A stretch of DNA of 32,000 nt from Erysipelotrichaceae bacterium OH741_COT-311 (GTDB taxonomy: Bacteria > Bacillota_I > Bacilli_A > Erysipelotrichales > Erysipelotrichaceae), in the NCBI GenBank assembly GCA_003858585.1, contig RQZE01000012.1, positions 1 through 32,000 on the forward strand. The letters are read 5' to 3'. Below the pieces are notes generated by a model. It did no database searches. It saw nothing but the letters and a program-made list of their open reading frames with translations, and had not been told where the DNA came from. How positions within the stretch are numbered: the first letter of the stretch is position 1; the number at the start of each line of letters is the position of its first letter. Of the stretch, positions 1,691 to 9,215 are shown piece by piece. The position numbers were made by a program, and so were the translations under genes.

Positions 1691-2593
1691 ATGGGAGCTT
1701 GGAATGCAACAATTTTTGGGAATGACACATCACTAGATATCAAAGAAGAATTTTTTAGACGATATAATCTTGGAGAAGAAGTAGAAGATATCAAAAATTC
1801 TTTATTTCTAGAAGAAGATGATGAAGATAGATTTAATGTTATTTTTGCACTTGCTTACTGTATGTGGGAAGTTGGACAGCTAGATGATGAATTTTTAAAT
1901 GAAGTAAAATATATCATTGAGAGAGAAGAAGATTTAAAAGTAAATGAAGAATTAGGGGCGGATGCTAAATTTATCAAACAAAGAATTAAAAATTTAGAAA
2001 AGTTTTTAGAAAAAATTAGCATCAAAAAAGAAAAACCTAAAAAAAGAGTAGCTCCACCTGTAGAAGTAGAAAGTAAATACAGAAATGGTGCTGTGATGTT
2101 ATTTAATTATGTAGATGGTATGTGGGGAGTGGTTATCGCTGTTGAAGGTAAATTTTATGATAAAGAAACTTTTTACCACTATATTCAAACAGACATTAAA
2201 ATAGCAGAAAAACCAACGATGGAAGATGTGTTAAAAGCACATATCATTGATCCTAGTTTTCATAGTAAAGAATATAACTCATTTAGAGACCCAATCTACT
2301 ATCACTACTTTGTAAATTTAGTTTCCGGATATTTAAAAAGTAGTGGAACAAAACGATTTGAAAAATATAACGACCATGCTTTTGAGATTATTGGCTATTT
2401 AGCTGACTGGGGAAGATGCTCGAGTGGTGCTTTTCATTATTTTGATTATTATAGGCAAAAAACAGCAGAAGAATTTAAAGAGTGTGTAACGAAAGTTCTT
2501 ACAGAAAATTATGAAGAAAATTCTGATGTGAGAACAAAAATGACAGTTGCAGAAATAGAAAAAGAGTTTCTGACTCGTGTATTAACAAGGTAG
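1691..2593 (+). CDS. DUF4259-like N-terminal domain protein (immunity-island type)
   Basis: 300 aa. RBS is TAGGAGA. The N-terminus MGAWNATIFGNDTSLDIKEEFF...FALAYCMWEVGQLD matches my memory of the DUF4259 signature (MGAWG.G.FDND.A.D). Confidence 0.65.
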   Translation: MGAWNATIFGNDTSLDIKEEFFRRYNLGEEVEDIKNSLFLEEDDEDRFNVIFALAYCMWEVGQLDDEFLNEVKYIIEREEDLKVNEELGADAKFIKQRIKNLEKFLEKISIKKEKPKKRVAPPVEVESKYRNGAVMLFNYVDGMWGVVIAVEGKFYDKETFYHYIQTDIKIAEKPTMEDVLKAHIIDPSFHSKEYNSFRDPIYYHYFVNLVSGYLKSSGTKRFEKYNDHAFEIIGYLADWGRCSSGAFHYFDYYRQKTAEEFKECVTKVLTENYEENSDVRTKMTVAEIEKEFLTRVLTR

Positions 2594-2619
2594 TTTAATG
2601 TTTTAAAAGAGGGAAAAAT

Positions 2620-2931
2620 ATGAATGAATTTACACTCTTCTGTACATTAAAATTCTATAAGAATAAAAGAAAATCTTTACCAGATCTAATGTTAGGCAAT
2701 TATAGAGCCCATATATTAATAAAAGGGGATACACAGTATTTGGGGTTTTACTTTGAACAAGGAGAAATTAAAAATTTCGATGAAGAAACTAATTGTTGTC
2801 TAATACCGATCTATGATAGTGTTGACTATTCAAATTTAAAAGAAGGAACAAGTTTTTTTATTATGGAAGGCTGCAATAAGGTAGGGGAAGGAATTGTAAA
2901 TGAAATTTTTGATTGGCTTAAAATAAGATAG
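2620..2931 (+). CDS. Hypothetical small protein with an EF-Tu domain-III-like sequence pattern
   Basis: 103 aa. RBS is AGAGGGAAAA. GNYRAHILIKGDTQYLG and EGTSFFIMEGCNKVGEGIVNEI resemble GYRPQFYFRTTDVTG and GLRFAIREGGRTVGAGVV of EF-Tu domain III. Confidence 0.6.
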   Translation: MNEFTLFCTLKFYKNKRKSLPDLMLGNYRAHILIKGDTQYLGFYFEQGEIKNFDEETNCCLIPIYDSVDYSNLKEGTSFFIMEGCNKVGEGIVNEIFDWLKIR

Positions 2932-2984
2932 ATAAATAAGAAGTTTCTAGTAAATATAAAAGAATTTTTAAACGAGGTGATAGT

Positions 2985-3548
2985 ATGAAAAAAGAATTTT
3001 TAGAAAATATTTTACTAAAAGCAGAAATTGCTGGTGACAAGTATTACTTTAATATGGAAAAAGAAGACTTTGATAAAGCGATGAAAGGCAATGAAGAGGA
3101 AGATTTTTATAAAGAATATATAAGGCAAAGAGAAATAGGATTTGAAGCTTATCAAACAGAGCTGAAAGAAGAAATTAGGCAAATTTCATCATCTGATGAA
3201 CTTCATCTTTTGACTGCTGAATACAATTTTGATGCTGGGAATTTTTTATCAGTGCAAATCATAAACCATCCATTATGTGATCTAGAAACAGCAAAACTGA
3301 TTTATTGGCTTTCATCACCTACTTATATTTATGAACAATATGGTAGTTTAGAAAATTGCCCAAAAGAAGATTATATTTGTTATGATGATACAAAACTTTT
3401 AATGACAATTGAAGAAAAAGTAAAAAACAATGCTTTTAAAACAGGACTTTTTGTTGAAAAAAATGCTGTTATGATAGCAGAGATAGAGGAGGTAGATTTT
3501 TCAATCTCCCCATATAGTAATATACCTGAAAGTTTGAGAGAAAAATAA
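2985..3548 (+). CDS. DUF4274-like protein (immunity-island type)
   Basis: 187 aa. RBS is ACGAGGTGA. ELHLLTAEYNFDAGNFLSVQIINHPLCDLETAKLIYWLSSP matches my memory of the DUF4274 core. Confidence 0.6.
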   Translation: MKKEFLENILLKAEIAGDKYYFNMEKEDFDKAMKGNEEEDFYKEYIRQREIGFEAYQTELKEEIRQISSSDELHLLTAEYNFDAGNFLSVQIINHPLCDLETAKLIYWLSSPTYIYEQYGSLENCPKEDYICYDDTKLLMTIEEKVKNNAFKTGLFVEKNAVMIAEIEEVDFSISPYSNIPESLREK

Positions 3549-3568
3549 ATTTTTAAAGGAGTGAAAGT

Positions 3569-4081
3569 ATGAAAAAATATCTTTGGAACGAACACCCATA
3601 TTATAAAGAAAATTGTACGGACAAGTCACTGACTGATGAAATGGTTGTCGAAGCAGAAAAGAAACTTGGCTATAAATTGCCACAGTCTTATGTTGATTTG
3701 ATGAAAAGCAGAAATGGTGGGAAACTTATTAAAAATTATTGGATGAATGAAAATGCAAAAAGTAATGAAGTAGATGTCATTGGGCTTGAATGTTTTTATA
3801 GTATTGGAAGTGAAAAAGATAACTCGCTTTTTGGGAAATTTGGTAATGAATTTTGGTTTAATGAGTGGGAGTATCCGAGAGATGTGGGAGTAATTATTGC
3901 TAAAACAGAATCTGGCGGACACCATATGATTTATTTGGACTATCGTGAATGTGGAAAAGATCGAGAACCGAAAGTTTCCATTTGTTTTCAAGAAAGTGAT
4001 TATAAATTTCAAATACTTGCAAATAGTTTTGAGGAATTTCTTTTAATGCTCGTAACAGACGAAGAGCTAGAAGAGGTTTAG
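3569..4081 (+). CDS. SMI1/KNR4 (SUKH) family immunity-type protein, copy 1
   Basis: 170 aa. RBS is AAAGGAG. LTDEMVVEAEKKLGYKLPQSYVDLMKSRNGGKL is the typical SMI1/KNR4 N-terminal motif. It is a paralogue of 8604..9113. Confidence 0.8.
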   Translation: MKKYLWNEHPYYKENCTDKSLTDEMVVEAEKKLGYKLPQSYVDLMKSRNGGKLIKNYWMNENAKSNEVDVIGLECFYSIGSEKDNSLFGKFGNEFWFNEWEYPRDVGVIIAKTESGGHHMIYLDYRECGKDREPKVSICFQESDYKFQILANSFEEFLLMLVTDEELEEV

Positions 4082-4116
4082 TTAAATGAGTTTTAATTTT
4101 TAAAGGATAATATATT

Positions 4117-8384: not shown

Positions 8385-8410
8385 AATATAAAATTGCATA
8401 TTTGTTAAGT

Positions 8411-8583
8411 ATGATTTCCTATAAAGTCACAGGAGATTATCCTGCTTTAGAAAGTAATCACGAGAAGTTAACGGAAGATATTACGGAATATATAGAGATT
8501 ATAAAATTGAATGGATAAAAGTTGTTAACGATGAAGAAATTAACACAGAAAAATGGGTATATGTAACAAGTGAATTTGAATAA
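8411..8583 (+). pseudogene. Decayed small ORF (frameshifted) ending in the WVYVTSEFE repeat
   Basis: ORF 8411..8518 reads MISYKVTGDYPALESNHEKLTEDITEYIEIIKLNG*. The -1 frame is open from 8458 to TAA 8581-8583 and reads ...DYKIEWIKVVNDEEINTEKWVYVTSEFE*. The two pieces overlap. Confidence 0.4.
8553..8580 (+). repeat. 28-nt exact repeat, copy B' (partner at 7520..7547)
   Basis: See 7520..7547. Confidence 0.9.
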
Positions 8584-8603
8584 TACTCTAAAGGAGGATT
8601 AAT

Positions 8604-9113
8604 GTGAAAAAATATATTTGGAGCGAGCATGATTATTATAAAAAAAATTGTACAGGAGAGCCACTTACAAATGAAATGATTCGGGATGCAGAAAGTAAAC
8701 TTGGATATAAATTACCACAAGCATATATCGATATGATGAAAAGTAGAAATGGTGGAAAATTAATTCATAATTATTGGGTAAATAAAAATGCAAAAAGCAA
8801 TGAAGTGAATGTCGTTGGGATTGAATGTTTTTATAGTATTGGAAGTGAAAAAGATAATTCACTTTTTGGGAAATTTGGTAATGAATTTTGGTTTAGTGAG
8901 TGGGAATATCCAAGAGATGTGGGAATAATTATTGCTGAAACAGAATCTGGAGGACATGAGATGATATATTTAGACTATCGTGAATCTGGAAAAGATGGAG
9001 AACCAAAAGTATCCGTTTGTTTTGCAGAATATGATTACGAGATACAAGTACTATCAAATAGTTTTGAAGAATTTATTGATATGTTAGTATCAGAAGATGA
9101 TCTTGAACTTTAA
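8604..9113 (+). CDS. SMI1/KNR4 (SUKH) family immunity-type protein, copy 2
   Basis: 169 aa with a GTG start 6 nt after AAGGAGG. By eye it is roughly three-quarters identical to 3569..4081, with an identical 24-aa block ECFYSIGSEKDNSLFGKFGNEFWF. Confidence 0.8.
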   Translation: MKKYIWSEHDYYKKNCTGEPLTNEMIRDAESKLGYKLPQAYIDMMKSRNGGKLIHNYWVNKNAKSNEVNVVGIECFYSIGSEKDNSLFGKFGNEFWFSEWEYPRDVGIIIAETESGGHEMIYLDYRESGKDGEPKVSVCFAEYDYEIQVLSNSFEEFIDMLVSEDDLEL

Positions 9114-9120
9114 AAGGTAT

Positions 9121-9162
9121 AATAAAGTAATAAAATAAAAAATTTAAAAATTTGGTTGCCAC
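9121..9162 (+). repeat. Cassette-junction repeat, copy B (partner at 7448..7490)
   Basis: See 7448..7490. Confidence 0.7.
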
Positions 9163-9166
9163 TAGG

Positions 9167-9215
9167 GCGGAATTTTCACTATTAAAGTATAGGGGAAATT
9201 TCGCTCTTTTGTTTT
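9167..9215 (+). terminator. Intrinsic terminator closing the immunity-gene array
   Basis: 11-bp RNA stem GCGGAATTTTC (9167-9177) / GGAAATTTCGC (9194-9204) with two G-U pairs and a 16-nt loop, followed by TCTTTTGTTTTG. Confidence 0.55.

Follow-up and report, generated by a model that had tools for sequence, protein, structure and literature searches.

The window analysed here is the whole stretch of 32,000 nucleotides from Erysipelotrichaceae bacterium OH741_COT-311 (contig RQZE01000012.1, positions 1 to 32,000, forward strand), and the subject of this report is an array of small genes that sits in it between nusG and rplK, a putative orphan immunity island. The array (1691-9113) has 13 intact open reading frames (ORFs) of 67-347 aa, all on the + strand of the ORF listing; the ORFs of the - strand (52-128 aa) are each contained within a + strand ORF. 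A preliminary description, made from the sequence alone, had spoken of about 15 co-directional genes and had placed all credible ORFs on the + strand. The orientation is borne out, and the number was a slight overcount, as a nonsense pseudogene (5243-5431) and remnants in 7443-7631 and 8385-8603 accompany the 13 intact genes. The array proteins have the accessions RRC91193-RRC91205 (locus tags from EII25_06820). The features are listed below and cassettes are mostly referred to by their start positions. Loci used for comparison carry L numbers; L022 belongs to a Tissierellia metagenome-assembled genome (MAG).

1..123, + strand: left flank, non-coding, ending in a G+C-rich hairpin terminator (99-117); unlike island-free strains
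124..301, no strand: native intergenic DNA, the left anchor, common to island-free strains
~302..9662, + strand: acquired block of 9.36 kb, 28.1% G+C
246..695, + strand: C-terminal third of an AlbA_2/HATPase_c_4/HTH gene (HATPase_c_4, HTH_11; phrog_12156 positions 344-482/485)
773..1116, + strand: frameshifted N-terminal fragment, replication-initiator or DnaD-like (blastx, two frames against a 136-aa L022 homologue)
1161..1526, + strand: C-terminal part of a truncated sigma-70 region-4-type regulator gene (TIGR02937, 2e-8; phrog_13787 positions 79-171/172)
1593..1622, + strand: candidate array promoter, extended -10 (TTTATA-18-TATAAT with TG)
1691..2593, + strand: ORF1, 300 aa, helical DUF4259-like N-domain and a C-domain of no named family; the most widespread cassette
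2620..2931, + strand: unclassified cassette, 103 aa; no Pfam, NCBIfam or PDB match
2985..3548, + strand: DUF4274 cassette, 187 aa (Pfam, 1.3e-10)
3569..4081, + strand: SUKH copy 1, SMI1_KNR4/SUKH_6 (Pfam, 8e-20)
4117..4830, + strand: DUF4241 cassette, 237 aa (Pfam, 1e-62; 90% cluster of 771)
4847..5239, + strand: unclassified cassette, 130 aa, predicted alpha+beta fold; small family with 28 matches
5243..5431, + strand: pseudogene of a 62-aa cassette family, single change of Cys9 to TGA
5450..5686, + strand: unclassified small basic protein, 78 aa, isoelectric point (pI) 8.8; always paired with 5710
5710..5913, + strand: unclassified Cys-rich zinc-ribbon-like protein, 67 aa, 7 Cys, pI 8.5
5945..6388, + strand: unclassified cassette, 147 aa, weak resemblance to DUF4085 (Pfam, E 0.008)
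6399..7442, + strand: TPR and DMP19 (DUF4375) protein, 347 aa (Pfam DMP19, 1.2e-23, plus TPR)
7443..7631, + strand: spacer with recombination scars, 54-nt and 28-nt repeats
7632..8105, + strand: cassette named DUF2004 by NCBI, 157 aa; no Pfam match
8130..8384, + strand: Imm17, two transmembrane helices (Pfam, 7.6e-10; 39 bits, cut-off 25)
8385..8603, + strand: remnants of lost cassettes and second 28-nt repeat
8604..9113, + strand: SUKH copy 2, SMI1_KNR4 (Pfam, 4.6e-20)
9164..9215, + strand: array intrinsic terminator, hairpin 9164-9207 followed by a U-tract
9435..9497, + strand: degenerate pemK RNA motif (34.2 bits, gathering score 34.8)

The array is built uniformly. Nine of its 12 internal gaps are 10-53 nt long, and the remaining three, of 189-219 nt, are occupied by decayed cassettes. 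A Shine-Dalgarno-type site (GGAG, GAGG, AGGA or AAGG) is clear at 11 of the 13 starts, in agreement with the individual ribosome-binding sites and short gaps reported earlier. Ten of the 13 products are acidic (pI 4.3-5.1) and have no transmembrane segment. The terminator that had been proposed for the end of the array folds in silico at -26.2 kcal/mol (z -5.4) and is kept 3' of the same gene, SUKH copy 2, in L022; a sequence scan of the + strand found no terminator-like sites within the array. The extended -10 promoter is exactly at the site where it had been placed, and the DNA from 1577 onward, this site included, is conserved with L022. Promoter-like sites in the window, however, are no more frequent than in shuffled sequence and this one is not distinctive alone, so it can be taken as a candidate only.

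Strains were compared by means of metagenome contigs, from this species or one very close to it, that share an identical PadR protein. Three of these (L012, L014 and L017) are without the array and have the order fba - secE - nusG - two small membrane-protein genes - PadR - DUF4097 - rplK. Window 121-301 matches the DNA just after nusG at 94.5% (L012 8873-9053, L014, L017); homology with L012 ends near 302-309 and resumes at 9663, equivalent to L012 9921, at 97.5-98.8% identity. With homology lost at about 302 and regained at 9663, the block replaces 867 bp, which encode the two small membrane proteins. Four further contigs (L013, L016, L018 and L021) bear the right end of the island at 98-99% identity. 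Within this canine oral Erysipelotrichaceae species, some strains have the 9.36-kb AT-rich block and others lack it. A core operon conserved in order in all relatives had been named as a contrary outcome; besides its absence from the three contigs, the block varies in order elsewhere. The array had also been described as AT-richer than the core, and positions 302-9662 indeed have 28.1% G+C versus 35.8% in 9663-32000 (five of the six hand counts given with that claim are exact; the line at 20001 has 20 G+C, not 24). The low G+C, the 867-bp replacement, and the mobile-element fragments and pemK remnant on the flanks together indicate a horizontal origin.

Where else are these cassettes found? 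For every cassette of the window, one or more other arrays contain a homologue, and the order of cassettes is different in each other genome compared (L002, L003, L005, L006, L022 and L023). Cassettes that are 85-94% identical at the nucleotide level occur in Gemelliphila palaticanis (L002), the Tissierellia MAG (L004/L022), Campylobacter portucalensis (L003) and a gammaproteobacterium-like contig (L005), and the same four carry relatives of ORF1 at 90-93% identity. Haemophilus haemoglobinophilus (L023) has an 18-gene array of 27-28% G+C in flanks of 37-41% G+C, with cassettes 72-84% identical (nt) to those of the window and 92.6% to those of the Tissierellia MAG. The 90% protein clusters of single cassettes reach Histophilus somni, Treponema sp. 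OMZ 788 and a Flavobacteriaceae MAG. The L003 island is in a genuine Campylobacter contig, between kdsA and ribH-nusB with the gene for the major outer membrane protein close by; L005 is suggested to be a gammaproteobacterium by its gmhB-metNIQ and DUF416 genes. ORF1 relatives were located in 37 metagenome loci with a length of 12 kb or more, where they belong to runs of small ORFs that share one orientation (median 4, maximum 13). L003 5334-14532 also bears a type III methylase fragment, a Bro-N gene, a RepA_N fragment and two SMR genes; the RepA_N fragment, typical of Firmicutes plasmids, and the other genes point to a Gram-positive donor.

The ends of homology blocks between arrays fall largely at gene boundaries: 62 of 69, the ends not all being independent, are in a spacer or no more than 30 nt from a gene end, where 23% would be expected, a clear pattern all the same. 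The exceptions are mainly at the TPR/DMP19 domain boundary (6922). In L002 and L022 the DMP19 half of that protein (from 6922) stands alone, as a 174-aa gene immediately preceding ORF1; modularity thus extends down to the domain level, and DMP19 and ORF1 are often neighbours. The comparisons show cassettes that have apparently been swapped gene by gene, at spacer boundaries. Pairwise ratios of nonsynonymous to synonymous substitution (dN/dS) are 0.08-0.3 for the cassettes, ORF1 included, and the cassettes have therefore been maintained as working genes. Between phyla, dS goes down to 0.05-0.3, which is far less than vertical descent would leave and thus indicates recent transfer, including transfer between Gram-positive and Gram-negative bacteria. 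The cassettes are independent, each with its own ribosome-binding site, and are under purifying selection.

The long spacers hold repeats and remnants. A 54-nt repeat at 7437-7490 resembles 9109-9162 and ties the end of the DMP19 gene to the end of the second SUKH gene. An exact 28-nt direct repeat (7520-7547 and 8553-8580) brackets the DUF2004 and Imm17 pair, which looks as if it had been inserted or deleted via recombination between the two copies. Positions 8381-8512 represent the 3' end of a DUF6707-family gene, and the array gaps contain only decayed cassettes of array families. In L022 just 3 nt separate the counterparts of window 7243-7442 and 8589-9229, hence the reading of the DUF2004 and Imm17 pair as inserted or deleted.

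A junction of about 19 nt, ATTTTAATTTTTAAAGGAG, occurs (with up to three mismatches) 16 times in 45 kb of arrays versus once in 83 kb of flanks (0.39 expected), figures that are to be read with the motif's derivation from the same spacers, its overlap with the ribosome-binding site and the homology of some copies. It precedes at least 10 unrelated cassette families in six arrays, and in the window it is found at 3543-3561, 4090-4108 and 8110-8129. The 8-nt core of the junction, TTTTTAAA, showed no enrichment over flanking genes (23/79 versus 6/32, p = 0.34). With a motif taken from its own spacers and a core that is not enriched, the junction is not claimed as a recombination site. Do the arrays nevertheless sample one common store? 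It is conceivable, though rather doubtful, that the window holds a local sample of a pool of immunity cassettes circulating among Gram-positive and Gram-negative members of animal mucosal microbiomes (Bacillota, Campylobacterota, Pseudomonadota, Spirochaetota and Bacteroidota), whose single genes would be exchanged via the ~19-nt spacer 'adaptor', an integron-like capture without an integron integrase. In that case the Gram divide would be no barrier to the toxins countered, and several of the unclassified cassettes would represent new immunity families.

What do the cassettes encode? Profile searches place the ORFs in the families that the preliminary description had named, i.e. SUKH (twice), DUF4274, DUF4241, DMP19 and Imm17 in Pfam, with the exception of the DUF4259 assignment of ORF1, a weak match below the cut-off (E 0.038; 15.3 bits, cut-off 22.8; residues 2-45 only). 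The SUKH copies score 72-73 bits against a cut-off of 25.4 and cover profile positions 1-124/125; they share 76% aa identity, and copy 2 shares 93% aa identity with its L022 counterpart. The Imm17 ORF has hydrophobic windows for two segments, and its RWSW fits the WxW motif of the family (Zhang et al. 2012, PMC3482391). The DUF2004 and Imm17 pair is conserved in L006, and the 90% cluster of the DUF4274 cassette takes in proteins of Histophilus somni and Campylobacter portucalensis. ORF1 has 151 homologues, some of which, close ones included, are labelled DUF4259 by UniRef. Its AlphaFold2 model is confident in the N-domain and poor in the C-domain, and no PDB match was found by sequence or, with the model, by Foldseek.

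Six ORFs had been listed as being without a nameable family. This is correct for five, whereas 7632 is DUF2004 according to NCBI. No family was found in Pfam, NCBIfam, PHROGs or PADLOC for 2620, 4847, 5450 and 5710, and PDB sequence searches with ORF1, 2620, 4847, 5945 and 7632 gave nothing below E 0.2. These cassettes are nonetheless met repeatedly: the unclassified ones co-occur with SUKH, Imm17 and DUF1877 in at least eight arrays. A homologue of 2620 with 95% aa identity sits after ORF1 in L006, and its family is present in nine metagenome arrays. The 4847 cassette is found in six arrays; its best AlphaFold2 model has a mean predicted local distance difference test score of 91.8 (46-59 in the other four), and Foldseek found no PDB fold match for it. 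The 5450/5710 pair is kept in the window, L002 and L022, and the two are neighbouring genes in Treponema sp. OMZ 788 too; the zinc-ribbon matches of 5710 are marginal only. The 5945 family has 226 cluster representatives, mainly stand-alone proteins of ~140 aa, and its members adjoin ORF1 relatives in Filifactor and Mogibacterium. Fusion partners of this family were set aside, as they look like gene-calling artefacts or unrelated enzymes. The 372-aa metagenome protein P0320 combines a weakly EEP-nuclease-like N-terminal region with a C-terminal 5945-family domain, and may be a merged toxin-immunity pair, a lead rather than evidence. An anti-phage defence reading was likewise dropped, there being a single weak Csx1 match (ORF1, E 0.00096, PADLOC); array genes gave no convincing PADLOC or PHROGs matches.

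No ORF in window 1-9700 is toxin-sized or toxin-like, in accordance with the earlier observation; the largest array product has 347 aa and profile searches found no toxin family. A toxin gene directly upstream had been named as a finding that would make this an ordinary toxin-immunity locus, but none lies 5' of the array within the window, where what separates the left end from the array is a terminator, then 181 nt of intergenic DNA of native origin and 1.4 kb of mobile-element genes, all decayed. The edges of nine annotated related arrays have no polymorphic toxin and instead have mobile-element or defence genes or core genes (hydrogenase, tRNA methyltransferase, gatA/gatB, ClpB, aroG, metE, pyrD and tilS). 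In the 37 metagenome loci, one large co-directional ORF is found just upstream, a LytB-type autolysin, and no toxin was seen among the large upstream ORFs checked. Large ORFs considered as toxins beside related arrays and rejected are an IgA protease, a MucBP adhesin with IS200, GatA/GatB, a STAND NTPase, SIR2, ClpB and the LytB-type autolysin. None of the ~45 related arrays examined is adjoined by a polymorphic toxin gene. A STAND NTPase and a SIR2-domain protein lie just 5' of arrays in L034 (2242-5973) and L055 (6933-8258), and such array sites may be general hotspots for accessory defence genes.

The decayed mobile-element genes reported at 246-1526 are all fragments, and their relatives are found beside other arrays. 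An intact 456-aa AlbA_2/HATPase_c_4 gene adjoins the array in L022, and the same fragment as in the window, 93% identical (nt), lies directly before ORF1 in L005. The 136-aa L022 homologue of 773-1116 matches phrog_6493 (positions 2-116/261). The 90% cluster of the 1161-1526 product includes a 250-aa member, and relatives are located just 5' of ORF1 in two loci (L026 and L029) and, in L055, between NikA and a serine recombinase. At the other end, the pemK motif at 9435-9497 has a counterpart in L022 (15695-15757) that scores 42 bits, above threshold, and is followed by a 55-aa ORF and the gene of a large serine recombinase; the window motif thus appears to be a remnant of the recombinase-proximal end of a mobile element. 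L022 has, 3' of its array, a NikA/MobC-type gene, the intact AlbA_2/HATPase_c_4 gene, pemK, a 560-aa large serine recombinase, RepA_N and an IstB-like ATPase, and the L055 metagenome locus joins NikA, a sigma-like gene and a 74%-identical serine recombinase to an array. No recombinase was found in window 1-9700. As L022 and L055 carry intact versions, the window probably represents cargo and debris of a serine-recombinase-type element without the recombinase. Window 1-9700 had no megablast match in plasmid and phage collections.

Outside the island, the stretch from rplA to the L10 leader and rplJ (window 12521-15250, L012 12780-17560) is variable between strains too. In both, the ribosomal-protein cluster encloses genes for an MscS channel and a DUF218 protein, and three further genes, of ABC-transporter type, are found in L012 but not in the window.

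Heterogeneous polyimmunity loci have been described before (Zhang, Iyer & Aravind 2011, PMC3113570; Zhang et al. 2012, PMC3482391). They have been noted in oral taxa that lack toxins, and their members are regarded as functionally equivalent and not as parts of a pathway (Zhang et al. 2012, PMC3482391). Such loci are delimited by at least four tandem genes of immunity families from more than one superfamily. The window has two SUKH genes and Imm17, together with the context-associated DUF4274, DUF4241, DMP19, DUF2004 and DUF4259-like ORF; strictly, three of 13 are curated. Otherwise the likeness extends to every structural feature listed by Zhang et al. 2012: one orientation (13 of 13 on the + strand) with small gaps that suggest a single transcript, no interruption by toxin genes or cassettes, and gene number and type that vary between strains and relatives. 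Polyimmunity loci are sometimes beside recombinases, as is the array of the relative L022, and are common in oral bacteria; the present host is a canine oral taxon. Unlike in the loci of Zhang et al. 2012, most cassettes here are outside that study's Imm families. The locus type is thus a known one. What the window adds to the picture is that near-identical cassettes are shared across phyla, that exchange points fall at gene boundaries and that remains of a serine-recombinase-type element are present; the added interest is in the cross-phylum sharing, the gene-by-gene reshuffling and the conserved unclassified cassettes.

The preliminary description had called the array similar to acquired interbacterial defence (AID) systems, and this is apt as an analogy and not as a statement of membership. 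With AID-1, AID-2 and rAID-1 the locus shares the character of a horizontally acquired orphan immunity array, co-directional, low in G+C, on or near mobile elements and perhaps with partly repetitive spacers. The marks of rAID-1 are a XerD-type recombinase on the 5' side, a low G+C content and intergenic sequences that are repetitive (Ross et al. 2019; bioRxiv 10.1101/471110). Of its features, at least two co-directional downstream genes of low G+C are found here (13 genes, 28.1% versus 35.8%), but upstream are the AlbA_2/HTH, replication-initiator and sigma-like fragments rather than a XerD-type tyrosine recombinase, and relatives of the array have a large serine recombinase downstream (L022). 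AID-1 and AID-2, which are Bacteroidales orphans of type VI secretion system (T6SS) immunity on integrative and conjugative elements (ICEs), are set apart by host and family, as the present host is Gram-positive, the families are others and only element remnants are present. The locus would function like an AID system and, because the XerD-type recombinase is absent, is not a member of that family.

Firmicutes also have strings of type VII secretion system (T7SS) immunity paralogues, such as esaG/DUF600 and tsaI (bioRxiv 10.1101/2022.01.07.475358). These are likewise Gram-positive immunity arrays that evolve by recombination between neighbouring genes, but they are paralogues of a single family beside a T7SS locus and toxin, whereas the window array is mixed and has no secretion locus within 32 kb. 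Integrons are resembled in the promoter-like site at one end, the promoterless single-gene cassettes in one orientation and the shuffling of cassettes between hosts; the differences are that no integrase-family match, attI or attC is present here, that the spacers, mostly of 10-53 nt, are too short for attC, and that the genes have their own ribosome-binding sites. The leading-region anti-defence islands of conjugative elements are also runs of co-directional small genes, situated near relaxosome genes and including a DNA-mimic-type family. The array has no known genes for anti-restriction or inhibition of the SOS response, and many related arrays have no transfer genes nearby.

The reading that best accounts for these observations, with a probability of roughly 0.75, is that of a heterogeneous polyimmunity locus, or orphan immunity island, acquired horizontally as the cargo of a since-decayed mobile element. 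A horizontally acquired, recombining store of immunity genes had been proposed in the preliminary description, and the outcome of the three checks it named (profile searches, upstream toxin, core operon) is in its favour. According to this model, most of the products, small acidic cytoplasmic proteins, would bind and block toxin domains injected by neighbours (via LXG/T7SS, T6SS, contact-dependent inhibition or Rhs), and Imm17 would act at the membrane. The cell might thereby be shielded from toxins not of its own making, and recombination in the spacers, which are short and partly conserved, would change the array as whole cassettes are gained, lost and swapped.

Several points weigh against the model. 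Curated immunity families (the SUKH pair and Imm17) account for three of the 13 genes, and Imm17 was itself defined by its occurrence in polyimmunity loci and is without a known toxin partner (Zhang et al. 2012, PMC3482391). Five array genes are without a family, and two structure models have no fold relatives. The preliminary description had called the families established immunity partners; that went too far for DUF4241, DUF4274, DMP19 and DUF4259, where the association rests on gene context, and the literature searched gave no published link to polymorphic toxins for these four, DUF2004 or DUF1877. No cognate toxin was identified for any array cassette. The small basic 5450/5710 pair is unlike typical acidic immunity proteins. 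That the whole block is read as a single polycistronic message is likewise inferred from sequence signals only. Lastly, the first 123 nt (fold z -1.9; no Rfam match) stand where island-free strains have the 3' end of nusG, so that there is a second breakpoint, with an insertion or rearrangement to the left.

Could the array instead serve the element that brought it? On this view the array would be an anti-defence cargo that a conjugative or mobilisable element carries, and its small acidic products, DMP19 among them, would inhibit restriction, CRISPR or other nucleases of the recipient on entry and not the toxins of competitors. Mobile-element fragments do flank the array, and in L022 (similarly in L055) the gene that directly follows it is of the NikA/MobC relaxosome type, with a serine recombinase, RepA_N and an IstB-like ATPase in the vicinity. 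Most products are acidic, the spread across phyla suits genes that aid entry into many hosts, and DMP19 belongs to a DNA-mimic family, of which a preprint lists DUF4375 homologues as candidate anti-defence genes of Porphyromonas ICEs; on account of that preprint the explanation is retained, as an unlikely one. SUKH and Imm17, however, are tied to polymorphic-toxin systems, no relatives of ArdA, KlcA, Ssb, PsiB or anti-CRISPR proteins were seen, the PADLOC and PHROGs searches gave nothing convincing for the array genes, and the large arrays of L006, L023 (Haemophilus) and L026 are between core genes without mobile-element genes. Moreover, the mobile-element genes of the window are all dead and the array genes are intact and under purifying selection, a state more in keeping with service to the host than to the element.

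A collection of accessory genes of unrelated functions that merely travel together on mobile DNA, with the immunity label deserved by SUKH and Imm17 alone, is improbable to a similar degree. Ten of the 13 genes are outside curated immunity families, most of the extra cassettes in L002 are without any Pfam family, no literature on the DUFs was found, and the 5450/5710 pair is basic and Cys-rich. Yet such a mixture would hardly account for the uniform architecture of small, co-directional, tightly spaced and individually swappable genes, or for the recurrence of the unclassified cassettes with SUKH, Imm17 and DUF1877, a co-occurrence that is the defining pattern of polyimmunity loci. Least probable of all, and very much so, is an ordinary toxin-immunity locus with its toxin gene just left of the window and the array as a tail of immunity and orphan cassettes. 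The unmatched first 123 nt, with the insertion or rearrangement that they suggest, would suit this, but the terminator at 99-117, the native DNA and the decayed element genes intervene, the array has its own promoter-like site, none of the nine annotated related arrays is edged by a toxin, and in the 37 metagenome loci the autolysin is the only large co-directional ORF just upstream.

As a polyimmunity locus, the array represents a well-bounded island in a poorly studied canine oral Erysipelotrichaceae, where occupied and empty sites can both be compared. The sharing of its cassettes suggests that immunity genes move recently and widely within animal mucosal communities. The 2620, 4847, 5450/5710 and 5945 cassettes and the family of the 300-aa ORF1, which are conserved, selected and unclassified, are candidates for new immunity families. 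If the array does confer protection, the idea of acquired interbacterial defence would extend from gut Bacteroidales to Gram-positive oral bacteria.

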